Below, one piece after another: positions 1 to 32,004 of a DNA stretch of 64,000 nucleotides. Position 1 is the stretch's first letter. Every line of letters starts with the position of its first letter. This DNA is from a virus (lineage: Duplodnaviria; Heunggongvirae; Uroviricota; Caudoviricetes): IMG/VR virus record IMGVR_UViG_2576861193_000004, positions 32,001 through 96,000 of that record; one strand, 5' to 3'. The notes under the pieces were generated by a model. It was given only the letters and a program-made list of their open reading frames with translations. It was not told the origin of the DNA and did not search any database. The position numbers were made by a program, and so were the translations under genes.

Positions 1-176
1 TTGAAAACAGCCACGAAGCCAGCCGGAATATCTGGCGGTGCAATATCGGTACTGTTTGCAGGCAGACCTGTATGAGGTGGAATATATGCGTCACCGTCAC
101 CAATAAATTCATTAGTTCCGGACAACAGATTATAAATTTTTATGGTCCGTGCTTGTTCACTCATTCTGAATGCCAT
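1..176 (-). CDS. tfa: tail fibre assembly protein, N-terminal part (gene runs off window start)
   Basis: Minus-strand ATG at 176 overlaps the stf stop (TAATG). Translation [58 protein letters not shown] matches the conserved N-terminus of lambda-type Tfa as recalled. Confidence 0.75.
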
Positions 177-3100
177 TATGCAAGCCTCACAATATAGTTA
201 AATGCGATGTTTTTGACGGTGTTTTCCGCGTTACCAGCAGCGTTAACGGTGATGGTGTGTCCATGTGAGCCAATCGCAACCGAGTGCGTATGCGCACCAA
301 TACCTACAGTATGTGCATGTGCGCCAGAACTTGCTGCAGTACCAGACAGCGAGTGGGTATGAGCACCTGCTGACTGTGTCTGAATACGTTGATAATACGA
401 TCTACTGGAAGAAGTCCCCGGGCTTACTTGATACTGTGAATCCTGGACATAAGTGAACCCACCGCCATCATAAAATGCTAACGCAGAACCGCCGCCTCCT
501 GGCCAACGAATACCATTACCATGAGTATGAGCACCGGCAGCCCCCGTAGAGCCACTCAGACTGTGCGTATGCGCCCCGGTGTTATTCGTGGATTTAGTGC
601 CGTAATCAAACGACGATGTGGTTTTCGTCCCCAAATCCGTACTGGATGCGCTGGCGCTGTGGGTGTGCGATTTAATGCCGTCCTGTTCCTGAGACAATAC
701 GGCGCGACCACTGGCAGGTTTGCCCTTAATCGTCCAGCCACGCATATCAGGGATCACGCCTGACGGATAAGCGGCTGCAAGTTTCGGGTAAGCAGATTTG
801 TCAAAAGTCTGCCCCTGCATCAGGGCATAGCCAGACGGAACGGTATCTGATGGCCACGGGATTGGTGCACCGACTGGATAAAACTCTGCAGGAGGATGAG
901 CCGAGGTGTAAAGCTGCGCCCACGGCGACCAGTTTGCGTCGGTCGTATCCCGTCGTGAACGAATAAATGCCGGAGCATGAGCACCGCTTGTACCACTCCA
1001 GCCAATTAGCAACTCTCCCTCACCAGCAACTCTCGCACCTTTCATGTGCAATACGTTGCCATACGTGGTCGGGTAGCTATTGTTGTACGCCTCGTACATT
1101 TGAATGCCAGCAGTGCCTTGAGTAGAGCCGCTTAACGCCGTAACTTGGCCACGAGATACCAATGTATTAATGTTGATATCGCCTGAGCCATCAAACTTAA
1201 CACCATTGATGTTTCTCGCTGTTTGCAACTTCGTAGCTGTTGAAGCATTACCGTTCAAACTACCATTTACGCCACCAGTCACATTTAGTCCATTACCGAT
1301 CGTAACAGCACCATTGGCATTGTTAATGATAAGCGGCCTTAAACTATTCCATGATCCAAGATTGTCACCCGAGGCGGTCAACATGAAGTATGTGTTTGAA
1401 CCATCGTTTCGGATAAAGAATCCGTAGTTTCCGCAGACAATGCGCAGACCATTCGCCGATTTTGAAATGATCTCACCAGAAGATGTCAAACCTCCAGATA
1501 ATGTACCACCGGTAAGAGGTAATGCACCGACATCAGAGGCTGTTGGTTTGTTTTTCGTGTTATATACTCTTCGCCATCCTGGAGAATAATCTGTGCCATT
1601 AAATACATAGATAAACTCCGCATTAGTGAGAGCACCAGAGACACTCGTCGTTGTGGCCGTTGTTATACGGATCGTATAATTGTTTGAGCTACTACCGTTA
1701 TTAAATACCTCTATAACAGCTCCTGCCAATGGAATAACGCCACAACCAGTTTCACTATTTGGTATGGTTGCACTATTGGCATAGGCCCACGCACATCGAG
1801 CAATCCATGACCTTGTGGTAAACGCGCCGTTATTTTGCAATAACGTCACTAACTGTGCTGTTGTTATTGCTCCGCCATTACTTCCTGTAGTTAACCAACC
1901 AGTAGGAGATGCCGGGCAACCTATATCGGCAGGCCCCAACGATATATTTCTTGTGCCATCAAACGCAATACCGTTGATGGTTCTTGCGGTTTGCAACTTC
2001 GTAGCAGTAGCCGCGTTGCCCGTTGTATTCTGATTACCAGTCGTATTAACACCTGGCAAATTAATATTCGCAGTACCATCAAAGCTCACGCCGCCGATAG
2101 TTCTTGCCGTCTGAAGTTTTGTAGCAGTTGCAGCATTACCAGTGGTGTTCTGATTACCCGTAGTATTTACACCTGGAAGGTTGATATTTGCAGAACCGTC
2201 GAAACCAACTCCACCGATAGATCTTGCCGTCTGCAATTTCGTTGCTGTACTTGCATTACCATTTAATGTTCCGGTGATCCCACCAGTAACAGACAACGGA
2301 CCTGAAACTGTTCCTCCGGTTGTTGGCAGTGCACCAATATCTAACGGCGTCGGTTTCTTATGTGTGCTATACATCGTATAAACAACACCATCGGTAACGC
2401 TGGAAGGCTTACTCGCTGAATATGTTGGCGATGTATAAATAGAAACTGTCGCATTTGCAGTACAATCCCAATGGATATTTACACTAGTCGCATAATTGCC
2501 AATCTCAACGTAAATATCATATGTATCGCCGGATGTGTTGATCCAGGCGAAATTCGTTAATCCGACGGCTGTACGCTTCCACAAAGCCCCGGTAATTCCT
2601 TTGGGCATTCCATTGCCTGCTCGTAGAACCAGTTCTGAAATGCCTGCCTGTTGAGGTGACCCCACGTTAAATCCCGCGCCACCAATCAATGCGATGTAAA
2701 CGATGGAACTATTTTGTGGCATGGTAACCGTAGCCAGTTTGAACCACCCAGCCCCGCCAGAGAAAGACATCGTTATTGAATTTAAAGTACCAATATCTTT
2801 CGGCGTTAATGTGATATCCGCAGTCAGTGCTTTCCCGTTAATTTTTCGGTTAGATGGCACCCTGCTGTTCGCATTGTCATTGACTACTTTAACTGCTTTT
2901 GGCGTTGCGGCCAGCGATTCACTGGTGCTGTCGACAGCACTGCTAAGTTTCACAACACCTTTAGTTGTAAGGCTTGCGTCTTCCATCGCAACTGCACCGG
3001 CAATCTCTTCAGCACGATCAGCAGCAGCTTCCGCACGGGTCGCAGCGGATTCAGCAGCAGTTTTGCTCTGAGATGCTGCCGTCGCACTGCCAGCTGCCTC

Positions 3101-4348
3101 TGTCGCCTTCGTGGATGCCGTCGTGGCGCTGCTCTTCGCTGCTGACGCCTGTCTGGTCGCCTCATCTTTTGAAGCAGACGCCGATGATGCCGATGACGCC
3201 GCCGAACTGGCGGACGATGCGGCTGCCGTTTTTGAGGATTCTGCACGGGTTTCCGACGCTTTCGCGTTCGTTTCGGATGTCTTCGCTGCGGAAGCAGACC
3301 TCGCTGCTGCGCTGGCCTGTTCAGTGGCTTGGCCAGCCTTCGTTGTGGCAGTTGAAGCAGACGATGCGGCACTTTCTGCCGATTTTCCGGCGGCGGTGGC
3401 ACTGGCTGAGGCCTGCCCGGCACTTGTTGACGCGGCACTGGCAGACGACGCAGCCGCTGTTTTTGAGCCTGCCGCAGCCGAGGCGCTCTGTCCCGCTGCC
3501 GTTTCAGAAGACCTGGCGTTCGTCTCGGACGTTTTTGCCGCCTTCGCGGAATTTCCTGCCGCCGTTGCCGAGGAAGCGGCATTACTGGCGCTCGAGGCTG
3601 CGCTCGTTTCTGATGATTTCGCTGCCTCTTTTGAGGCCGCCGCATCCCGGGCTGAGGTGGCAGCTTCTGACGCCTTCGTGGTCGCGGTGGATGCAGAAGT
3701 GGCTGCAGATTTTTGTGACGCTGCAGCATTCGTTTCAGATTTTTTCGCATCAGTTGCACTCGCACTTGCGGCACTTTGTGAGGATGCCGCAGCGGATGCA
3801 CTTTGAGACGCTTGAGAGGCTTTTTCTCCAGCGGCATTGGCGCTTTTTGCTGCTGCGGCAGCACTGGCCGCCGCCTCACGAGCTTTGTCGCCAGCAGCAT
3901 CAATCGCGTCAGTGTTATTTTTATACCACTCAACGTTTTCGTTGTGCTCGTTGACGATCTGCATTAGCGGCTTAACGGTCACTTCTGTACCGTCTTCACG
4001 CTCGATTGTCACCTCATCCAGCGCAGTCAACCAACTGCGTATGGACTTGGAATCAGCCGACATACGCGACATTAGCGCAGTAAAGCGCGCGCTAAACTGT
4101 GTTAAGTCGCCTTCATAGGTCGTAATGATTCGGCACGGAACTTCAGACTGAGTTTCGCCGGTATAAGGTTCTGAGAGAACAATGTTCGTATCACTGGTTA
4201 CGCGCTTGATCTCATACAGCTTATTGTCGGGGCCAATGACGATCATCCCCGGCAACACACCATTAGCTGTTACGTTCCAGGCTGTCCCTGCCCCAACCAG
4301 AGTATTGCTGCCCTGTGTAAATGTGATAGTACCTTCCCTGTACCACAT
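176..4348 (-). CDS. stf: side tail fibre protein (Stf-like), 1390 aa
   Basis: Position between J-like gene and tfa. Long Ala/Ser/Thr-rich shaft, three tandem ~36-aa fibre repeats ([13 protein letters not shown]...[19 protein letters not shown]), His-rich C-terminus (GAHTHS repeats) as in lambda Stf / T4 gp37-type fibres. Confidence 0.8.
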
Positions 4349-4440
4349 GTTGAATATGCTCCTTGATTTGGCGGGCTATCCTTGCCCGCCATTAAGTATA
4401 TACTTACCTATTTTTACCGATATAAAATTTTTTTCCACCA

Positions 4441-7400
4441 TCACAGACGGCCAATTCTTACTCGTAAGACGTTGTTATCGTCATAAACGTCAATCCGCTG
4501 ACCATTTATAACCAATCGCCCATTGCCGCCGCTATTACCGTTGATCTCCAGCGTTCCATTTTTGCCGAACCGCCATCCAGATCTACCGCTAACAAAATTG
4601 GTAGATTGCAGATCGCCTACTTTTGCATTGGTGATTGTGCCATCCTTGATATACGCTCCATTCATATAGGCGATACTGTTTTCGATAACAAATGGCGTTG
4701 TGATCTTCCCGTTAACAGAGTTGACCAAACCAAACCTGTCCGCCTGAACCAAAAACTGAGATAGCCCAGTGGTGTCAATACCAAGCGCAATACCGGCAAC
4801 ATACTTCTGCCCTCCGCTCGTTGAAGTCTCCATTTTCAACGTCCACGCGGTTGATACTTTTTTGTTGGTATCAGCAATAGCTGTTGCCTGCTGTTGAATT
4901 GTCGCGGTATTTCCATCCACCTCTGCTTTCAGAGTATCGATTCGCCCACTCAGAGCATTATCTGCCTGCGTTCTCGCTGTCGTTTCAGTTGTTACCGCCG
5001 CGGAAATGTTGGCTGCCGTTTGAGACTCTAAGTTTGTGATTTGAGTCGCCAATGCAGCATCTTGCTCTGTACGCGTTTTCGTTTCGGTTGCTACAGCCGC
5101 TTTAATATCCTCTTTGTATTGAGAGGTCAGCTTGGTGATCTGAGACGACAACGCCGAGTCAGCATCAGTTCGAGCCTGCGTTTCAACTGCAACGGCCGCA
5201 CTAATATCTTTCGCTGTCTGTGCTTTTAAACTTGAAACCTCTTTTGTTAAAGCGGTATCACCATCTGCACGAGCCGTTGTTTCTCTGGCAAGAGACGCCT
5301 CGAGATCATTAGCTTTTGCTGTAAGAGACGTAATCTGGGTAGACAATGCACTATCGGCATCAGTCCTTGCTTTTGTCTCTACAGCAACCGCTGCGGCAAT
5401 ATCAGTTCCGGTTTGTGCTCGCAGGCTGTTAATTTCTCGTGAGAGCGCCTGGTCAGCACTTGCCCTGGCCTCCTGCTCCTGAGTGATGGCAGCGGATATA
5501 TCACCGTCAACCTTTGACTGAAGCTGGTTTATTTGTTTGGCTAACGCAGAGTCCCCGCTTGCTCGAGCCTCCTGCTCACTACGTATTGCAGCAGAAATAT
5601 CATCATCAACCTTTGCCTGAAGTTGGGTGATCTGGCTTGCCAGAGCCGAATCTTCCGTTGCTCGGGCTTCTTGCTCTTCCTTAATAGCTGCGACGATATC
5701 GTTGCTTACTTTCGACTCAAGCTGAGTGATCTGTGTCGTCAGAGCTTCATCGGCAGATGTACGAGCCTCCTGCTCTGTACTAATCGCCGCGCTGATATCT
5801 CCTTCAAACTTAGATTGCAGCTGAGTGACACGCTTTGCCAACGCTTCATCGCCATCGGCACGAGCGGTGGACTCTTCCAGAATACTGGCCTTAATGTCTT
5901 CGCCAATTTCTACGCGAATTTCCTCAACCTTCGTGGCCATTGCAGACATATCATCAGCAAAGGTTTTCTGTGTTGTTGCGATCTTCGCGTTATTGACCAT
6001 CTGCTTGTGCTGGTCTTCATCTTGACGAAGAGCCAGGTCAATATTTGTTTTGGCTAACGCCTCAATGTTCGTAGTCAGTTCTGCACTGGCACGATCGACC
6101 TCTGCAACCGTCTTTTTCATTTCTTCAACGGCAGCGGAGCTTTCCTCTACCGTTGACTGCAACACTTCCAGTTGTTTAGCGTTTGCAGCATCGCCTTCAA
6201 CACGAGCCTCGCTTTCCTTAGCAATAAGAGCCGCCGCTTCATCTCTTGCAGCCTTTATTGCCTCGACTGTATTAGCGAGAGCTTTATCGTGTTCAGATAC
6301 GGTGTTTTCGATTTCAACAATTGCAGCATCAGTAGCATCAATTTTTTCAAACGCTTCATTGACCTTGTCGATCGTTGCCGAAACCTCACCTTTAAGCTCG
6401 GTTTGTGCGTTCTCCAAAGCATCGCTACGCTCGTTGAATTTTATTTCAAAATCCGCGAGGTTATCGCTGAACTGCTTATCTAATTCAGCTATATCTTCCT
6501 TAACGTCGTTTACCGACCCCTCCAAAGATTCGACGCTCTGGTTGATATGCTCATTTAACTCGTCAACTGCTTCTTGAGAGGCTTTGCTGTTGATGTCCTC
6601 AAGCAGAGCCTGACCAAGCTCGGAAGATGTAATTTTGCCAGTCAGGAACGACAGTACATCGCGAGTTGTCGCCTCTGTACCCAAGTTTGAGTTCGGAGGA
6701 CTTAACATACCTCGCTTGTTCGATGCTCGAACCCAGTAATACCACGTTTCGCTATCCCCAAGACCAGCATGTGTAAAGGTGGTGCTTGCAGACTCTGCGA
6801 TCAGTTTCGCCGTATCCAGATTGTTGGTCTGGGATGCGTAAACATTAATGTGATCAAGGTCTACCGAATCTGGATTAACCCAATTCAGTATCACATTACG
6901 ATAGTCTCCAACGGCCGTTAATGACGTTGGGGAATCCGGCGGTGTCATTGTGCCCAACACCTGATAAACGGTACTGATAATCTCTGTTTTTTTACCGTTG
7001 AATGAAACCGCATACAGCTGGAAGTCGTAGCGTCCATTCTCCGCGACATTAACGATTTCGTATTGCTCTTCGGTTACACGCGCCGATTGCCAGTTCGATA
7101 CATTGTTTTCATCAGAACGTCGCCAACTGATCCAATACTCTGGAGATTTCCCTTCCCATGTTGCAGTCAGTTTTACTGACAGGTTGCCAGGGCTTGAGAG
7201 ATAAGTCCCTTCGGTGATTTGCAAATTAGACGGCTTGGAGTAAGTCGGGTCCAATACCGTCGTATTCTGCGGGATAAGCGTTGCACCATTGTCGATTGCC
7301 TCATATTTAGACGGATTGTTCTCAACAGCGGTGATGTCAAAGCTACCCGGCGTTTCCCCCTGCGCGATGTTAACGATGCGAACGCGCATAGGTTCGAGAT

Positions 7401-9174
7401 CTGGTTCTGTAATAGTCCAGACGCCGTTCAAAACAGGCGTTTCAGCCGAAGACAGGGATTTTGAAAACGTAACTTTTGTTATATTTTCGCCAGTTTCAAG
7501 AACATCGCGTTCAACGATTTTGCCTTCATGATTCAGTATTCGAATAAAGCAGCCGCCTTTGGCTAACGACACCGGCGCATCGAGTGTGACGCTGTTTTTG
7601 GTAAACGCCACAATTCGACCTGAGTTACGTTTGCCTGCGCGATATTTGTTCTGAATCAGAACGGTTTCACCAGGCATCAGAAATGACGCGTCTAAGCCGG
7701 CAGTAAATGTAATTACATCCGACTCCATTCTGGCGGTATATAAAAGCCACAAACCAACTCGGTGAGCCTGCCCTCGGCTTGTACAGCCAAATGCTACGAC
7801 TTCTGTCTTACGCTCACCATAACGGCGCATTGCGTCCTGATCTTCAACGTACTCGATGTTTTGCTTATAACCGTCCTCCTTGTTGTTGTAGGTTACGAGC
7901 GCAACGGATGGGCGATCTTTACGCGCAGAACCTTTATAGGTAAACAATCCATCTTTGACGTTAGAGTTGGTAAACATCATTACCGGATCTGATGGGCTAT
8001 CCTGCATGATGTTAACCATGCCACCAGCCCAAAACACCATACCGCGGAATGCACCGGCAATATCCTGAATTAGTCGGTATGCGTCCTGTCGACTGGTGAT
8101 CTGCGTATTGATTGCAAAGCGTTTCTCTTTGCCACCAAAGCCATCATCGACCTCTTCGTCACAATATCGACCAATCTGGTACAACTGGCCAAGGTCAATC
8201 ATAGATTCCGACACATACTGACCAAGGCCATATCGAGCATTGGTCAGCAAATCAAAGAGAATCCACGCGGGGTTCGAAGAAGACAACAGCTTAAAAGTGC
8301 CATCCCATACCCCAGCGTAAGTGTTACTGGACTCGTTATAGTTTGAAGGTACTCGAATTTTTAGGCCACGCACCAGATAAGAGCGAGATGGCATGGTGCT
8401 GCCGAATTGCTCAGAGTTTACCTTCAATCCAACTAAAACAGAGTTTGGATAGTTCATCGGTGTATCGACAATTTCCCCGATTGAATCCACCCATGTATCG
8501 TTATAGAGATACTGGCTACTGTTATCATCGGTAATACGGACTACACGAACCTTGTATGCGCGTCCAGGCTTAGGCAGCTTCAGCTCGTAGCTACGGTAAT
8601 AAACGCCGGTCTTCTTTGCTGTTAGCTTAATGCCAACGCTTTTTTCACCTTCCGCGACCACATCTACAAATGTTGAGTCGCCATTTGCTATCTGGAACTT
8701 GTACTCAACAGTCGTACCGTTCGTGTCACCAGTTTTTTTATCTATGCTTCGCAAAGAAGGAAACTTCATGATGACACGAACCCGATCAGCTTCATCGTTA
8801 TCGATTGAAACCGTTACATAATGTGTTTTTTTTAACTGGATATTGACGGATTTAGGCGTTTCAACGAAATCAAAGCCAGACATTGGAGTCTGGTCTTGTG
8901 AACCGTCGCGAAAATCCCATGTGATTCCGCTGAAGTTGGAGGAACCGTCTTCATTTACAATCGGCAGATCGTCGATAAAAATAGATCTTGCGCCATTTAC
9001 TAAGCCGCCAATTACCCCTTCCCCAAGAAGATCGAGGATAGCGGCCATTGCACGAGAATTTACGGTATCGTCGGCTTCAACCGGTGTACGGCTGGAGCTT
9101 TTGCTGCTTTTTTTACCACCCGCACCGGCAATAAACAGCGGTAGCTTTTTCTTCTTGAACTGTTCCATGTTCAA
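4441..9174 (-). CDS. host specificity / central tail fibre protein, lambda J-like, 1577 aa
   Basis: N-terminal and central regions align by eye with lambda J (e.g. YPNSVLVGLKVNSEQFGS...VPSNYN; AFGCTSRGQAHRVGLWL; KYVAGIALGIDTTGLSQFLV). Contains a long inserted alanine-rich tandem-repeat coiled coil. Confidence 0.85.
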   Translation of the reverse strand: MNMEQFKKKKLPLFIAGAGGKKSSKSSSRTPVEADDTVNSRAMAAILDLLGEGVIGGLVNGARSIFIDDLPIVNEDGSSNFSGITWDFRDGSQDQTPMSGFDFVETPKSVNIQLKKTHYVTVSIDNDEADRVRVIMKFPSLRSIDKKTGDTNGTTVEYKFQIANGDSTFVDVVAEGEKSVGIKLTAKKTGVYYRSYELKLPKPGRAYKVRVVRITDDNSSQYLYNDTWVDSIGEIVDTPMNYPNSVLVGLKVNSEQFGSTMPSRSYLVRGLKIRVPSNYNESSNTYAGVWDGTFKLLSSSNPAWILFDLLTNARYGLGQYVSESMIDLGQLYQIGRYCDEEVDDGFGGKEKRFAINTQITSRQDAYRLIQDIAGAFRGMVFWAGGMVNIMQDSPSDPVMMFTNSNVKDGLFTYKGSARKDRPSVALVTYNNKEDGYKQNIEYVEDQDAMRRYGERKTEVVAFGCTSRGQAHRVGLWLLYTARMESDVITFTAGLDASFLMPGETVLIQNKYRAGKRNSGRIVAFTKNSVTLDAPVSLAKGGCFIRILNHEGKIVERDVLETGENITKVTFSKSLSSAETPVLNGVWTITEPDLEPMRVRIVNIAQGETPGSFDITAVENNPSKYEAIDNGATLIPQNTTVLDPTYSKPSNLQITEGTYLSSPGNLSVKLTATWEGKSPEYWISWRRSDENNVSNWQSARVTEEQYEIVNVAENGRYDFQLYAVSFNGKKTEIISTVYQVLGTMTPPDSPTSLTAVGDYRNVILNWVNPDSVDLDHINVYASQTNNLDTAKLIAESASTTFTHAGLGDSETWYYWVRASNKRGMLSPPNSNLGTEATTRDVLSFLTGKITSSELGQALLEDINSKASQEAVDELNEHINQSVESLEGSVNDVKEDIAELDKQFSDNLADFEIKFNERSDALENAQTELKGEVSATIDKVNEAFEKIDATDAAIVEIENTVSEHDKALANTVEAIKAARDEAAALIAKESEARVEGDAANAKQLEVLQSTVEESSAAVEEMKKTVAEVDRASAELTTNIEALAKTNIDLALRQDEDQHKQMVNNAKIATTQKTFADDMSAMATKVEEIRVEIGEDIKASILEESTARADGDEALAKRVTQLQSKFEGDISAAISTEQEARTSADEALTTQITQLESKVSNDIVAAIKEEQEARATEDSALASQITQLQAKVDDDISAAIRSEQEARASGDSALAKQINQLQSKVDGDISAAITQEQEARASADQALSREINSLRAQTGTDIAAAVAVETKARTDADSALSTQITSLTAKANDLEASLARETTARADGDTALTKEVSSLKAQTAKDISAAVAVETQARTDADSALSSQITKLTSQYKEDIKAAVATETKTRTEQDAALATQITNLESQTAANISAAVTTETTARTQADNALSGRIDTLKAEVDGNTATIQQQATAIADTNKKVSTAWTLKMETSTSGGQKYVAGIALGIDTTGLSQFLVQADRFGLVNSVNGKITTPFVIENSIAYMNGAYIKDGTITNAKVGDLQSTNFVSGRSGWRFGKNGTLEINGNSGGNGRLVINGQRIDVYDDNNVLRVRIGRL

Positions 9175-9185
9175 AAAATCCTTGT

Positions 9186-9779
9186 TTACATTAGCTGGTC
9201 AATCGTGATTGAAGAACTCACAACCTGTGAGCCAACCAGAATTTCCTCGCCATAGATAAGTTGTACTGGGTTGCCCTGGTTTTCTGTATTTTGAGGGCCG
9301 TCGAAATAATAAGAGTTCGAGTTATCTGCCTGTCTCACACTTTCGTTAGTGGCTTGCGGCGATATGATTTGTGATATGCCGCCCATCATCAGTGACAAAC
9401 CGAGAGGTGCTAAAGCAGGCATCACTACCGCCGATACAACCAACAAAGCGGCCCCTACTACCGTCTGAAACCACCCAAAAGCAGATCCACCGCTTCCTCG
9501 CGGAACAGGTGTAATGCGGATTTTGGCAATGTTGTCAGACTGCCCCATCATCTGATATTCACTTTCGTCAACAGACCACTTGTGGCCCTGTTTATTGGTG
9601 ATCTGGATGTGGTAACGGTCATAGGTTTTGATATTGCGCTTCATCCATGCTTTAAACCCAGGCTTGTTGGCCTCAATTAAATCCAGAGCCTGTTTTGTAT
9701 TGCGCACCTTTAGATGCCAGTGGCGGCCAAAATGTTTGGCCATAGGGCCGCCAAGCTGCACATGAACTAACTCAGACAC
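9186..9779 (-). CDS. tail assembly protein, lambda I-like
   Basis: Position between K-like and J-like genes, size about 200 aa, hydrophobic C-terminal segment. Confidence 0.55.
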   Translation of the reverse strand: MSELVHVQLGGPMAKHFGRHWHLKVRNTKQALDLIEANKPGFKAWMKRNIKTYDRYHIQITNKQGHKWSVDESEYQMMGQSDNIAKIRITPVPRGSGGSAFGWFQTVVGAALLVVSAVVMPALAPLGLSLMMGGISQIISPQATNESVRQADNSNSYYFDGPQNTENQGNPVQLIYGEEILVGSQVVSSSITIDQLM

Positions 9780-10591
9780 GTCTCATCTCCCTTGAGCAAG
9801 TCTCTGTGACGCAAGTGATGCGTCGTATGTTTCTGATACATTCCGCCGTAATAAGCACGACAACTAAGACGGTCGATCTGGTGATGAAGAATCATTCCAT
9901 CGCCGATATAAACCGCGCAGTGATCTGGCATTTTCCCGTATTGAATAAAGAAGACGTCCCCACGTTGAGGCTCTGTTCCAGGCGCAAGCCGTACCAATCC
10001 TTCGTTTCGGTAGTTCTGGTCGAGAATGTCGTTATCGCCGGTGTACCACGATGGAATATGCAGGTGTGCGTTCGGGTTTAGTTCGACGTTAAACTCACGC
10101 TTCAAATAGTCCCGACACAACATCCAGCAATCAAATACGCCAAATACATACGGTCTGCCCAGGTATGGCATTTCGAAACCATCAGGTGTGATCACATTCA
10201 TCTCGCTAAAATGGAAAGGGGCATCTCCCTCAACATTCTTGCGAATAGCCAGAATCATCCACGGAACTTCCGTCGTTTCGCAGCCTGCACGATCGGCATA
10301 AGATGCTTCTGCTGATTCATCAGTATGTGAATGCCAGATTGCGATAACATCACCCGCATCCTCTGCCGCCATAATGTCGTCAACGTGCATTACAAAAGTG
10401 TTCTGCGGGTTCTCCGAAACATTCCGCGCTTCCATAAAGCGATATTTGTCGCCATTAGTTCTAACCAGAAAGCCACACGCTTCATTAGGGTAGCGATTTA
10501 TGGCGCAGAGATAGATTTGCTGCATAACGTCAGAGCCAAGCTCAGGGATTGCTTTATTACCCATACCGCGTAGCTCCAATAAATCCGCCAA
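9767..10591 (-). CDS. tail assembly protein, lambda K-like (JAMM/MPN plus NlpC/P60 domains)
   Basis: JAMM metalloprotease motif HSHTDESAEASYAD (HxH-x7-S-x2-D), C-terminal Cys/His region, position after L-like gene. Confidence 0.8.
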   Translation of the reverse strand: MADLLELRGMGNKAIPELGSDVMQQIYLCAINRYPNEACGFLVRTNGDKYRFMEARNVSENPQNTFVMHVDDIMAAEDAGDVIAIWHSHTDESAEASYADRAGCETTEVPWMILAIRKNVEGDAPFHFSEMNVITPDGFEMPYLGRPYVFGVFDCWMLCRDYLKREFNVELNPNAHLHIPSWYTGDNDILDQNYRNEGLVRLAPGTEPQRGDVFFIQYGKMPDHCAVYIGDGMILHHQIDRLSCRAYYGGMYQKHTTHHLRHRDLLKGDETCLS

Positions 10592-11288
10592 AATGGATCA
10601 CACCGTCGGCAAAATAATTCCGACGCGCATTACAGGCGTCATAACGTTTTGTGCAGTAATCCGCACCAGACATAGACGTCTGCTGGTTATTTTTGTCGAA
10701 ATATGGACCGGTATAGCCGCATTCTGGCCCTCGGTATTTCCACGGGCAGGTGTTTTTAATGATCTGACGATACGGCAGTTGCACCCCCATCAAATCGAAC
10801 ACACTGGACAATTCAAACTCGACAACCTGATGAGTTTCGAGAGTTTTCTGTTCGATAAACCACATTTCATCCGGGAAATGTTGGTTTGGATCTGCTGTTG
10901 GGTTGCCGTCTTTAAAATTAACGGCATCGAGGAAGCGAGCCAGCGTCATCTTGCGAATAATGCGGCAGCCAACAAGATCGTCGTTCGCCTGAACTTCCGC
11001 AGAGACGGTTCCGGCAAAGTTCGATACCTGAATTTTTGGACGTGGCAACGTTCCCTGGCCAGTTTTGTCAAAGCCTGATGCTTTGATTGGCCACGGCTCG
11101 TATGTCACTCCTTGCCAGACGACCGGTTGCATCAGTTCGTTTGTTCCGGCGTGGAAGAATAGCTTCCCCCCTGAAGTTGTGTTCGACATATCCAATACGA
11201 ACAACTCAATGAGTGCAGAGGGAGATAAGCTCTGAATATCAGCTTTAATTCCCATTGTTTCATCCTTGAAATAAGTAGGCGCTAACAT
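10557..11288 (-). CDS. minor tail protein, lambda L-like
   Basis: Conserved L motifs (ARFLDAVNF, NTCPWKYRGPECGYTGP) and Cys-rich C-terminus. Real start probably the internal MGIKAD near 11255. Confidence 0.85.
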   Translation of the reverse strand: MLAPTYFKDETMGIKADIQSLSPSALIELFVLDMSNTTSGGKLFFHAGTNELMQPVVWQGVTYEPWPIKASGFDKTGQGTLPRPKIQVSNFAGTVSAEVQANDDLVGCRIIRKMTLARFLDAVNFKDGNPTADPNQHFPDEMWFIEQKTLETHQVVEFELSSVFDLMGVQLPYRQIIKNTCPWKYRGPECGYTGPYFDKNNQQTSMSGADYCTKRYDACNARRNYFADGVIHFGGFIGATRYG

Positions 11289-11337
11289 CCTGTCAGCGCC
11301 ACAATGATAGTAAATTAGTACTTACTTATCCAGATGC

Positions 11338-11673
11338 TTAAGCCTCAAATACTTGTCTGAATGTAGCAGTTAAGACACAGTACCCCTGATATCGCTTGAC
11401 CGTATGACTGTCACATACAACTACAATCTGCTTGCCTCTTGGATTAACCCAATAGAACGATTCAACACCTGATCGCTCAGTCAGGAAGTCATCGATTGCA
11501 TTAATTTCGTTGTATGATCTGGTAAAGGTTAACGACCATTCTTCTTTAATACGATTAAGACCTTGAGCCTGTCGCTGCTCGTAGTCATCACCAAAATTAA
11601 GTACCGTTACATTCGGTTTTACGCTCTTTTCAGATTCGTAATCTGGATACCAATTAAACGTTTGTCTTTCCAT
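11338..11673 (-). CDS. minor tail protein, lambda M-like
   Basis: 111 aa, directly downstream of tape measure gene, pattern resembling lambda M (FGDDYEQR...SFYW). Confidence 0.7.
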   Translation of the reverse strand: MERQTFNWYPDYESEKSVKPNVTVLNFGDDYEQRQAQGLNRIKEEWSLTFTRSYNEINAIDDFLTERSGVESFYWVNPRGKQIVVVCDSHTVKRYQGYCVLTATFRQVFEA

Positions 11674-11715
11674 CTCACATCCTTGTGAGACTGCCCCGGT
11701 CGGGGCAGTCGATAG

Positions 11716-14700
11716 TTAGTTACGTTGAGTGTTTGGGTTGAGTGATCCGCCAGGGCGTTTCTCTTGAGCGATAGTCTCAAGCGCGATTGCTTTCATCCGT
11801 TGAGCGGCATTGTTCCATATGCTTTCTGTATCGCCGGATTCTGTCGTGCTACCGTCACTATGGACGTTGATCTCAATTGATACAGGAGAAAGAACATTTC
11901 CGCCTCCACTCATACCATCGGTACTGAGCGTTACAGGGATTGTTCGGCCATCAGGCAATGGAACATACGCCTCATTCATAGAACCTTCCCCAAACAACGC
12001 TAATTGAGGCGAGTTAGCAATACCGCCTTTCTGGTATGCCCGGAGCGGGATCACGCCGTCTTTTCCGAATATTCCTCCATTTGCAAACTTCGGGATTGCA
12101 GGAATGCCTTTAGTTCCGTCAGCCACACTGCTGGTTGCGGTTTTAGCAGAGCTTGATGTCACGCTGTCGAAACCACCGCCAGCCCAAGCTGAAACAAGAC
12201 CAGATGCAACCGTTGCTCCAAAACTCAACCACTTATTACCAGAGCCGGAAGCATTAGCTCCAAGCATTGCAAACGCGGCAGACAGCGCGCCGGTAACAGA
12301 GCTTAGGTTCTGCATCGAGAAGATGGAGTCCTTCACTGCTTTTGTCTCAGCATCTTTGGCTTCAGTGCTATCAAATAGCCCTGATACCCAGCTACCAATC
12401 GCATTTGTTGCTGTGCCAATTGCGCTGGTGGTCTGCTGTGTTGTTTGCCCCAATCCAGTTACCGAACTGGACGTCTCCTTCGTGGCTTCTCCTACTGACT
12501 TGTCGCCGTTAACAGTGTTACCCATTCGTACACCTTGATTGGCAACTGCGGAAGCAACCCCGGTGAGCAAATTACCACTCTGTAAACTACCAGCTGCGGT
12601 GGTTCCCATCCCCAACATGTTCATTAGAGGCAGCGTGATCTGCGACTTCACGACCATATTGGTGATATCTTTCAAAATGGACTGAGATAGGCTGGAGAAG
12701 CTCATCTTCCCGTTAATAACGAAATCAGTCAGGACATCAGTTAAGCCACTAAACAAATCAGTCCAGGTGCTTTCGATCTGCTCTGCCAGGTTTTCGTATT
12801 CCAGTGCCAACTTCTGCGTCGCAGTCCCCGTCTCTTTAATAAGCGCGGTATTGCCAGCAGCAATCAGTTGATTGATTTTCTTTGTATAAAGCGCCACAAC
12901 TTTAGGATCAGACGCCTTATCACGAAGTTCTATCAACGCTTTGAGATTGCGGTTGTAGGTGTCTTCGAAATCAGCAACTTTCTCTTCACGAGACGGCGTA
13001 TAGCCAGCACTAATAATGGAATCCGACTCCGGTGCCCAGGTGGAGATCATTTGCTCAACATTGCGGCGATTAAACATCTCGCGATATTCAGGTGTCGCAT
13101 TTTTGAGGTCTTCAAGACGTTTTTTCGCCTTGTCGATCATCTCTTGAGTGATGAACTCGTTAGGAACCGCATTAGCCAAATCAGTCAGCGATTTCGTTGT
13201 ATCGCGAAGAGACTGATCAAACGATACCGTAGCCTTAGAGCTTTCACCCATTTGCCCCATAAGCTGATCGGCTTTGTCCAGAGCCTTCTGGTATCCGGCT
13301 GCCAGTTTCTGTTGCGCTGCCTGTTCCTTCTTGGCCGCACGCTGCGAGGCGTTAGCTGATCGTTGGGCTGCTTTCTCGGCTGCTGCTGCATCCTGTTCAC
13401 GAGCTTTAGTCAGTGCGGCAATGGCTGCGGCACGCTCTTCATCGCTCATTTTCTCCAGAGAGCTGGCACTGGATGCTTTCTGCAAATTAAGCTGCGTCTT
13501 GAGTTGTTTAGGCCCAATAATCGGCTTACCTTCGAAGTCCATCATCGGAGTGCCGTCAGGCAAAGTACGTTGATAAGTCGCAGAATCCATCTGGTTTCGC
13601 ATATATTGCGCCAGCGCCTTCTGAGCTGCTTTATCAGTTGTACCTAACCCCAGAACAGTCCCCTGGTTTGACATTACGCCCTTACCAGTTTTGGCCGCGT
13701 TATCTCTCTCGAACTCTGCCTGAGTCAGTTCCTGAGCGACGACTTCCAAATTCTCCTGATAACCACGAATACTGCCTTGCAGTTTCTTGATCTGCTCGGT
13801 GTTTCCTTCCTTTTTCGCTTTTTCAAGCTGATCATTAAGAGTGGCTATTTGCCCCTCGACAGCATTCTTACGAGAAGAAAGTGAATCAACCAGTTTTTGC
13901 GCAGGCTCCAGATAGCTTTTGTTTACCGTTTCACGTAACGGTGCCAATAGTTTGTTCTTTTCGTCATCAGAAAGTGAATCGTCATCATTGATTTTTTGGA
14001 TCTTCTCCAGAGCCTCTTGACGAGCTTTAGCGAATGTTGCCGCAAAGTCTCTATTCTCTTCCCGTATTTTCTCTATCTGTGATTCTGCCGCATCTTTTGC
14101 AAGACGTTTGGCTACAGCAATGTCTCCGCGTTCAATTGCCCCAGTAGTTTTATCGCGTTTCTTACGAAGGTCATTTAGCTCATTTTCTATACGCTTACGT
14201 TCATCCTGATTAATCTTTACTGTAGTTCCGGCCATACCCGGCCCATAAACCACCTTTTCGCCAGATTTTAACTCTTGTTCCTTTTGCGTGATTTGTTGCT
14301 CAAGACGCGCTTTATACTCCGCCATTTGTGCACGTTTGGCCGCTGTCATCGCTTCTGGTATTTTCCTAATCTCGTCAACGACCTTTGAAGTTTCGCTGCG
14401 GAGCATGGTCATGTACGTGATTAGGCCAGCAACAGCTACAGTGGCAACTGTAAATGCTGCCCCTATAGGGTTTGCTGCAATGAACGCCGTTAATCCAGCA
14501 AAAGCGCCTTTAAGCCCCGTAATCGCCCCACGGATGGCGAAAATAAGAGAGGGGATCGGAGCCAGCCCCATACGTGCCGCACGATTGAATCGAGTTACTG
14601 CTGTAGCGCCGAGGTTAAATGGAGTCTGTATGGCGGTCGCCATCGTGGCAAAGGTGCTAACCATCTGGCTGCCTGCGCCAACTACCCCCATGATCCCTGC

Positions 14701-31725: not shown

Positions 31726-32004
31726 ATGAGCGAAAAGAAAACAACTTATTGCCAAGTGGCATTGTCTGATAAGGCCAATGAAAAACTTGGAAAATTTCAA
31801 ATAAAACTCAAAGAGAAAAAAATCAAGATGTCTAAGGCTGAAGTTATCAATGCCATTCTGGAGACGATGACTATGGCTGAATTTGACAAAGTCACATCTG
31901 CCGTTGGGGTTTCCGCTAAGACGCGTGAGAAAATCATGCGCATCTATGAGAACTCCAATATGACAAAAAAAGATCTAGAGGAAATACTGAGCAGGTTGCC
32001 GTAA
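31726..32004 (+). CDS. hypothetical protein
   Basis: 92-aa ORF starting 3 nt after the helicase stop. Confidence 0.45.
   Translation: MSEKKTTYCQVALSDKANEKLGKFQIKLKEKKIKMSKAEVINAILETMTMAEFDKVTSAVGVSAKTREKIMRIYENSNMTKKDLEEILSRLP

Follow-up and report, generated by a model that had tools for sequence, protein, structure and literature searches.

A J-like tail tip protein of an SSU5-like phage-plasmid with a putative coiled-coil shaft built partly from 33-residue repeats

Introduction

The 64,000-nucleotide stretch of DNA analysed here, called the window below, comes from a tailed virus of the class Caudoviricetes (IMG/VR virus record IMGVR_UViG_2576861193_000004, positions 32,001 to 96,000) and encodes a tail tip protein resembling protein J of phage lambda. 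A preliminary description of the window had noted in this protein a long, repetitive helical segment and the lack of the C-terminal domain with which lambda J binds its receptor. What, then, is this segment, where does it stand relative to lambda J, and which part of the tail would recognise the host? Our results suggest that the protein probably forms a central fibre with a trimeric coiled-coil shaft of the kind known from F-type pyocins and phage T1, on which the side fibres may dock and which may switch its fold.

Results

A rod inserted at one point of a lambda J-like protein

The protein, referred to below as window J, is encoded on the minus strand (Table 1). Its residues are counted from the annotated ATG at 9168, and Pfam positions, which are counted from a TTG, run two higher. 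In BLASTP, lambda J residues 2-835 aligned with residues 18-859 (32% identity, E 4e-115), and lambda J residues 841-931 aligned with residues 1420-1508. Because these two stretches flank it, the rod between them (residues 860-1419) consists, by this alignment, of about 560 residues inserted as one block between residues 835 and 841 of lambda J, which has only about 5 residues there. Pfam placed FNIII-A_GpJ at 104-238 (E 1.5e-29), Phage-tail_3 at 360-523 (E 7e-34), a weak fn3 match at 647-730 and full-length PF09327 at 1425-1559. The PDB sequence matches were the F2-pyocin fibre (25vf_A), T1 gp33 (9l9p_S) and lambda J (8iyk_J), with a best E of 2.7e-154. The naming of the protein as J-like was borne out by the lambda alignment, by the hub domains and by the order of the genes around it.

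The rod comprises 560 residues, of which 18% are alanine and 12 are glycine, and it contains no proline. AlphaFold2 (AF2), run on single chains, predicted a helix over residues 1091-1407 with a 76-sequence alignment (predicted local distance difference test score, pLDDT, about 50-87) and over residues 832-1439 with the single sequence (pLDDT about 45-81). Breaks in these helices were considered as kinks and rejected, since their positions differ between the models (residues ~1251-1256 versus ~1060-1066 and ~1272-1274). The preliminary description had placed an alanine-rich repeat coiled coil of about 550 residues at 4950-6650, which corresponds to residues ~842-1409. The length, the alanine content and the helix prediction agree with it, but repeats fill only about 330 of the 560 residues, and the proximal 230 are helical and non-repetitive. 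The two parts also differ in their hydrophobic periodicity, which peaks near 3.5-3.57 residues in the proximal rod and at 3.67 (33/9) in the repeat array, where power at 3.5 is essentially nil. Since 33 cannot be divided by 7, units of this length are incompatible with an unbroken heptad register. In Pfam, no family covers the repeat unit, and the rods of relatives gave only weak, sub-threshold matches to generic coiled-coil families (Apolipoprotein, ApoLp-III, SlyX, DUF4795).

Distal to the rod, window J carries a tail-tip domain that corresponds to lambda J 845-972, out of 1132 residues in lambda J. It had been thought to end in the middle of lambda J, which was wrong: the protein runs through this whole domain and stops 18 residues past PF09327, with the C-terminal residues VLRVRIGRL, an ending also seen in T1 gp33 and DEV gp56. 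AF2 modelled the domain as beta strands (pLDDT 80-92), and in Foldseek the model matched the central fibre of lambda (8xcj/8xci) and the fibre of SU10 (7z4b). Lambda J has in addition the receptor-binding domain PF12421 (Ig_GpJ_C) at 1001-1132 (132 residues, E 4.5e-74), which binds LamB, whereas in window J a Pfam search detected no PF12421 even at E <= 0.1. The absence of a lambda-type C-terminal receptor domain was therefore confirmed, as neither Pfam nor the alignment found a conventional one. For annotation, this absence should be regarded as normal for this J subfamily and not as a truncation.

Anatomy of the 33-residue unit

The repeat units were laid out by anchoring on the motif D-I-x-A-A-I. 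Motif anchoring and a hidden Markov model (HMM) gave ten contiguous units and one isolated degenerate unit (Table 1), in place of the roughly thirteen counted earlier. The period is 33 residues or 99 bp. Within the array, protein self-identity was 0.49, 0.40 and 0.33 at lags of 33, 66 and 99 residues, against a top value of 0.18 in 300 shuffles over all lags, and DNA self-identity at lag 99 was 0.53 against a highest shuffle value of 0.32. The period of 29 residues or 87 bp proposed earlier was rejected, since self-identity was at background at lag 29 (0.07) and at the shuffle level at lag 87 nt (0.30). The consensus quoted with it (DISAAI..EQEAR...DSALA.QI.QLQSKV) is correct for units 2-5.

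Over all units the consensus reads D-I-s-A-A-I-x-x-E-x-x-A-R-a-x-a-D-x-A-L-a-x-q-I-t-x-L-x-s-k-v-x-x and is composed of three 11-residue segments. Seven positions are invariant (A4, E9, R13, D17, A19, L20 and L27), with a mean unit identity of only 48%. In pairwise comparison, the units have a DNA identity of 39-65%. The repeats are ancient and have been preserved as protein sequence. The array is not uniform along its length: units 6-10 have a higher Thr/Val/Ile fraction than units 1-5 (0.26 versus 0.19) and a lower helix confidence (pLDDT 52-72).

Homology with the shafts of F-type pyocins and T1

Three independent structural studies of 2026 found the shaft of the F-pyocin to be a trimeric coiled coil, extending from the tail tip and carrying three side-fibre trimers (PMC12874032; PMC13455828; bioRxiv 10.64898/2026.02.24.707460). 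The last five to six units of window J and its tip align with residues 882-1193 of the F2-pyocin fibre (E 1e-24), of which 882-1077 belong to the shaft. Likewise, shaft and tip align with T1 gp33 (E 5e-30; T1 shaft part 890-1017) and with DEV gp56 (E 2e-17). By homology with the F-pyocin shaft and T1 gp33, three J chains most likely form a thin coiled-coil rod, which could be up to about 80 nm long when fully extended. Such a rod would hold the distal tip away from the tail hub, and this is the best-supported step of the proposed mechanism. What is proposed beyond a trimeric helical shaft follows by homology.

A further, less supported step of the proposal concerns a change of fold. On firing, the 163-residue shaft of the F7 pyocin converts to a beta-prism, and blocking this conversion abolishes killing; the pattern SxSxxMxxLxS recurs in the central fibres of related phages, for most of which both conformations are predicted (PMC12874032). 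We searched the rod with a regular expression that is our own rendering of the published pattern. It matched 19 times, compared with 3.6 ± 1.9 in shuffled sequences, and 0 of 1000 shuffles reached 19. The motif occurs at phase 19 in all ten units (A-L-x-x-Q-I-x-x-L-x-S) and at phase 12 in 5/10 units (A-R-x-x-x-D-x-A-L-x-S). Moreover, at phase 12 the invariant R13 precedes the invariant D17 by four residues, matching the rule of an arginine four residues from an acidic M position (PMC12874032). These matches are consistent with fold switching and are not proof of it. As the motif and the homology suggest, the array might convert from a coiled coil to a beta-prism. Drawing beta-strand boundaries by hand from the motif was abandoned, as several overlapping registers fit.

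An array that is beta-structured (a beta-prism or beta-helix) already in the resting virion, with the helix prediction being an artefact of modelling one chain, seems improbable. AlphaFold3 (AF3) did give a beta-prism and not a coiled coil for 30% of 24 related central-fibre regions of phages (PMC12874032), and the Thr/Val/Ile content and lower helix confidence of units 6-10 would suit such a state. However, the solved pre-firing pyocin structures are coiled coils (25vf; PMC13455828; PMC12874032), the 3.67 hydrophobic period fits helices, and the scarcity of glycine and lack of proline in the rod would be unusual for beta-prisms with tight corners.

Side fibre and receptor recognition

Residues 2-109 of the side tail fibre (window 4022-4345) match residues 3-106 of the F2-pyocin side fibre 25ve_A (E 3e-4 when searched with one sequence, 1.3e-5 with a small profile). 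The same N-terminal region is retained by SSU5 gp21 and by other SSU5-like plasmids with fibres that diverge in their distal parts. A second profile match (25vf_A 202-266) was set aside as an artefact that stems from a single chimeric member of the alignment. Because the side-fibre N-terminus is homologous to the shaft-binding pyocin region, the proximal rod is probably a docking platform for three side-fibre trimers, although this step is less supported than the spacing of the tip. In F-pyocins the side fibres dock on an acidic, glycine-kinked stretch that lies ~30-40 residues along the shaft (PMC12874032, PMC13455828). The window J shaft is most acidic in a stretch (Table 1) that lies 10-50 residues into it, roughly at the pyocin docking position, and that by this analogy may tentatively be taken as a candidate docking region. 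In lambda, according to PMC13455828, which cites the Ur-lambda structure, the side fibres ring the distal tail protein via Ig-like domains, whereas the fibre N-terminus in the window is of the pyocin type.

At its other end, the side fibre is of the lambda type: residues 1157-1390 (234 residues; window 179-880) share 71% identity with the tip of lambda Stf (lambda orf-314). The tip is lambda-Stf / T4 gp37-like and His-rich. The binding of SSU5 to the lipopolysaccharide (LPS) core is attributed, in the passage of PMC12312913 that cites Kim 2014, to the fibre adhesin gp22. Because of this precedent and the lambda-Stf-type tip, the primary recognition of the receptor is probably a task of the side fibre. 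Full delegation to it, as proposed in the preliminary description, is another matter. In T1-like phages, with DEV gp56 and in F-pyocins, the terminal receptor is the known or proposed target of a separate protein at the tip of the central fibre (PMC8594841, PMC12892993, PMC12874032), and this precedent speaks against it. In the window, no adaptor or receptor-binding gene directly follows J, and J itself lacks a C-terminal extension; a gap of 92 bp leads straight to the 1390-residue side fibre gene. In Cyrano, the side fibre gene is followed by a holin gene, with no tail fibre assembly gene (tfa or gp38-like) after the fibre, unlike SSU5, which has a gp38-like adhesin gene there.

Variation in unit number and exchange of modules

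Repeat number had been named as a likely source of length variation. This holds to the extent that 5, 9, 10 and 11 contiguous units are found among relatives (Table 1), but the DNA of the units is too diverged for a locus changing at high frequency. In pCUPF07B (variant CUPF06), an exact 99-bp duplication adds 33 residues to a protein that is otherwise identical, and in PEC178 and AH04 a deletion of 99 bp each removes 33 residues, in different registers. Judged by these near-identical sequences, the three changes are recent. The 11-bp microhomology GAGCAGGAGGC, with copies at 5567-5577 and 5468-5478, is the only exact lag-99 match of at least 11 bp, and the junctions of pCUPF07B and AH04 map in it. 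The deletion junction of PEC178 lies in a 9-bp match, AAAGGTTGA.

These natural in-frame +99-bp and -99-bp variants on near-identical plasmids, with junctions in microhomologies of 9-11 bp, could be taken to mean that frequent slippage generates tip length variants as a host-range or immune-evasion switch. We regard such a contingency locus as very improbable: the units are only 39-65% identical in DNA, no exact match at lag 99 exceeds 11 bp, Tandem Repeats Finder counts just 2.1 copies, conservation acts at the protein level, and about 40 of about 43 sampled intact close copies of J have the standard length (4734 or 4731 bp).

Among SSU5-like lineages, the similarity of the J genes breaks at nt ~2586-2614 of the gene, the hub/rod junction, and again near nt 4417, inside the tip domain, and the match to SSU5 ends at nt 3282, where the array starts. 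Such breaks indicate an exchange of modules by recombination at domain boundaries. In some relatives, J has a C-terminal extension of about 150 residues without a Pfam match. That of TOE3 (NZ_CP069087.1, plasmid pToe3-1, 4007-8581), which follows five units, is 156 residues long. In T1-like phages such an extension of J stands in for a separate receptor-binding locus (PMC8594841), and by analogy with the TolC-targeting members of this group, the TOE3 extension is a candidate built-in receptor-binding domain.

Giant J homologues were seen on two E. coli plasmids, with 4052 residues (NZ_CP019283.1 103754-115912) and 3923 residues (NZ_CP083502.1 65055-76826). Their conserved hub is followed by ~2900 residues in which short coiled-coil segments alternate with beta-rich domains of ~150 residues, with a period of about 240 residues and one ILEI-like match, then by the tail-tip domain and an extension of 146 residues past it without a Pfam match. 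The HMM of the 33-residue unit did not match either the 3923- or the 4052-residue protein, and their rods are built differently.

Distribution of the unit among phage proteins

A profile of the ten units was searched against 1.84 billion representative proteins. It matched 2030 clusters at a cut-off of E <= 1e-3 and 189 at one of E <= 1e-30. As many as 31 matched stretches occurred in a single protein, and one top match was a TipJ protein of 2138 residues with 22 matched stretches. An alignment of 75 diverse homologues gave the same 33-residue consensus. A word-indexed homologue search with the C-terminal 485 residues returned only fragments or proteins of <=850 residues, and was used for alignment and not as a length census. 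As relatives reach 31 matched stretches, the ten units of window J lie, on this profile count, in the middle of the range, and the repeat is a hallmark of the family. Some unit-bearing proteins have no TipJ hub, and some pair the tail-tip domain with the T7-tail-fibre N-terminal domain (PF03906).

Fold switching or a passive spacer

Variation in whole units by lineage (5, 9, 10 and 11) and family members with up to 31 matched stretches are also what a passive spacer would show, that is, a stable coiled-coil rod that sets the distance from the hub to the tip and the side fibres, for example across O-antigen or capsule, with unit number tuning its reach and no switch of fold. Lambda and T5 function without such a switch (PMC12874032), and both AF2 runs, with the deep alignment and with the single sequence, gave helix only. 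We see this as possible, though unlikely. The array aligns with the F-pyocin shaft, the very segment shown to switch in the F7 pyocin. A motif in every unit and seven invariant positions at about 48% identity represent more constraint than a spacer needs, and the 33-residue period, by breaking the heptad register, would produce packing discontinuities at regular intervals.

The trimeric, side-fibre-bearing and fold-switching shaft that we prefer has several points against it. In each unit, no more than one or two of the three 11-residue segments show the motif clearly; the motif is permissive in a sequence rich in alanine, serine and threonine, and the units are not independent samples. The AF2 models that show only helix are single chains, while a beta-prism needs three. 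One pyocin report describes a shaft mostly in continuous heptad register, compared with the period of 3.67 here, and packing may differ. The homology of the side fibre with the pyocin fibre is modest (24-28 bits), and the acidic glycine-containing stretch is partly deleted in SSU5 and TOE3, where the same side-fibre N-terminus is kept. No PyoF11/F12- or T1-type distal gene follows window J, which leaves the parallel incomplete. Finally, in the publications consulted here, neither Cyrano nor SSU5 was pictured with a long tip fibre.

Gene, coordinates and host element

The coordinates of the features are collected in Table 1. The open reading frame (ORF) of J spans 4441-9174 on the minus strand. 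Its listed start is the TTG at 9174, two codons before the ATG at 9168, which gives 1575 residues and is the start used in the RefSeq and ENA annotation of J copies that are 99.5-99.7% identical. Plus-strand ORFs in the J region (e.g. 5623-6057 and 6050-6577) were set aside, as they are antisense to a well-supported gene in an alanine-rich sequence. An Rfam scan of window positions 1-12000 gave zero matches.

The genes upstream of J on this strand encode homologues of lambda I, K, L and M together with a tape measure protein of 1526 residues. The lambda order M-L-K-I-J is kept in the window and is also annotated in Cyrano, SSU5 and RefSeq plasmids. Window J is 99.6% identical to its counterpart in Escherichia phage Cyrano (SSU5-like phage-plasmid pLF82), which is annotated as 'tail host specificity protein J', and in RefSeq the protein already bears the label 'phage tail tip fiber protein'. 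Among 5426 complete E. coli genomes, 229 have a plasmid that matches it, and no match is chromosomal. On these matches, the window is part of an SSU5-like phage-plasmid of E. coli. Virions of Cyrano are siphovirus particles with a tail of 259 nm (PMC9928086).

The same J gene is broken by insertion sequences (IS100, ISEc52, an IS3-family element, IS1203 and ISEc23) in at least five E. coli plasmids (Table 1). This suggests that infectivity has been lost repeatedly while the element persists as a plasmid.

Table 1. Features of window J and its side fibre gene, and related J genes. Positions are those of the window unless another source is named; aa, amino acid residues counted from the ATG at 9168; IS, insertion sequence.
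Feature	Position or source	Strand	Remark
J-like central tail fibre / tip attachment gene	4441..9168	-	stop codon 4441-4443; Pfam FNIII-A_GpJ, Phage-tail_3, fn3, Phage_Tail_Tip
Hub and FNIII part, aa 1-859	6592..9168	-	homologous to lambda J 2-835
Proximal non-repetitive helical shaft, aa 860-1090	5899..6591	-	AF2 helix; aligns with rods of other SSU5-like J proteins
Most acidic shaft stretch, aa 868-909	6442..6567	-	net charge -8 per 28 aa; contains Gly884 (charge scan)
Isolated degenerate 33-aa unit, aa 980-1008	6145..6231	-	HMM from ten units, domain E 3e-05
Ten contiguous 33-aa (99-bp) units, aa 1091-1419	4912..5898	-	one unit of 32 aa
Only Tandem Repeats Finder array, 99 bp x 2.1 copies, 75% matches	5468..5676	-	
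Distal beta-rich tail-tip domain, aa 1420-1575	4444..4911	-	Pfam Phage_Tail_Tip aa 1423-1557 complete
Side tail fibre gene, 1390 aa	176..4348	-	92 bp downstream of J
Contiguous units = 5	SSU5, AVS0747, TOE3		
Contiguous units = 9	2014C-3307, PEC178, AH04		
Contiguous units = 10	this window, Cyrano, an O104:H4 plasmid		
Contiguous units = 11	pCUPF07B		
IS-interrupted J gene	NZ_JBWDPU010000001.1, NZ_CP029421.1, NZ_CP151018.1, NZ_CP028430.1, NZ_CP124394.1		E. coli plasmids

Discussion

The rod is otherwise an expected feature. Its interest lies in placing the SSU5-like phage-plasmids, which are widespread in Enterobacteriaceae, among the non-contractile tails with a helical shaft of the pyocin/T1 type. 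It would follow that SSU5-like side fibres hang from the shaft and not from a ring on the tail. The natural series of unit numbers also offers material with which the recently proposed fold-switch mechanism of membrane penetration could be examined.

On a wider view, thousands of phage fibres would use the 33-residue unit as the module from which a fold-switching spring is built. We consider this rather doubtful. If it were true, the change of the coiled coil into a beta-prism in window J would be about twice that of the F7 pyocin (about 330 versus 163 residues per chain), and the variants with 5, 9, 10 and 11 units would form a ready series for the scaling of stored energy or reach with unit number, in a phage that delivers a genome and not in a tailocin.

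In comparison with known systems, window J shares with lambda gpJ (8iyk, 8xcj) the hub, the FNIII domains and the central straight fibre (PF09327). Among its closest parallels in design is the central fibre of the F-type pyocins (F2 PyoF10, 25vf; F7 CFP; PA0641), in which a TipJ hub, FNIII domains, a helical shaft and a Phage_Tail_Tip beta-prism end follow one another as in window J, likewise with the SxSxxMxxLxS motif and without the lambda receptor domain. The shaft of window J is ~3.4 times longer (560 versus about 163-180 residues), and distally it consists of ten 33-residue units in a regular array, unlike the F-pyocin shaft. The side fibre is also far longer (1390 residues) than that of the pyocin, with a tip of the lambda Stf type in place of the R-pyocin type. 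In addition, window J belongs to a temperate phage-plasmid that contains DNA, whereas the F-pyocin is a tailocin.

T1 gp33 (9l9p_S; PMC11945409) has a J-like hub, the same 33-residue units (ALSREIDQLKAQIGDDIQASLTDIRE) and the same tip domain. It ends in RVQIGRL, and the alignment reaches the very last residue of window J. About two to three units are clear in T1 gp33, whose C-terminal region of about 350 residues was predicted to be ~37 nm long and was unresolved in the map (PMC11945409). In T1-like phages, genes for dedicated receptor-binding proteins lie immediately downstream of that for the J homologue (PMC8594841), and no such gene follows window J. The fibres of the Pseudomonas podovirus DEV (short fibre gp56, 9ze4; PMC12892993) and of SU10 (7z4b) share a coiled coil of related units and the same distal domain and end, but they stand alone, without a TipJ hub. 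DEV gp56 recruits gp55 and gp54, which bind LptD (PMC12892993).

Taken together, these likenesses indicate that window J is a new and longer member of the pyocin/T1-type central fibres with a helical shaft, and that its architecture is largely ordinary. To this known group the present analysis adds the insertion point in lambda J, the 33-residue unit with its invariant positions, the variants in unit number and the putative pyocin-type docking region for the side fibre.

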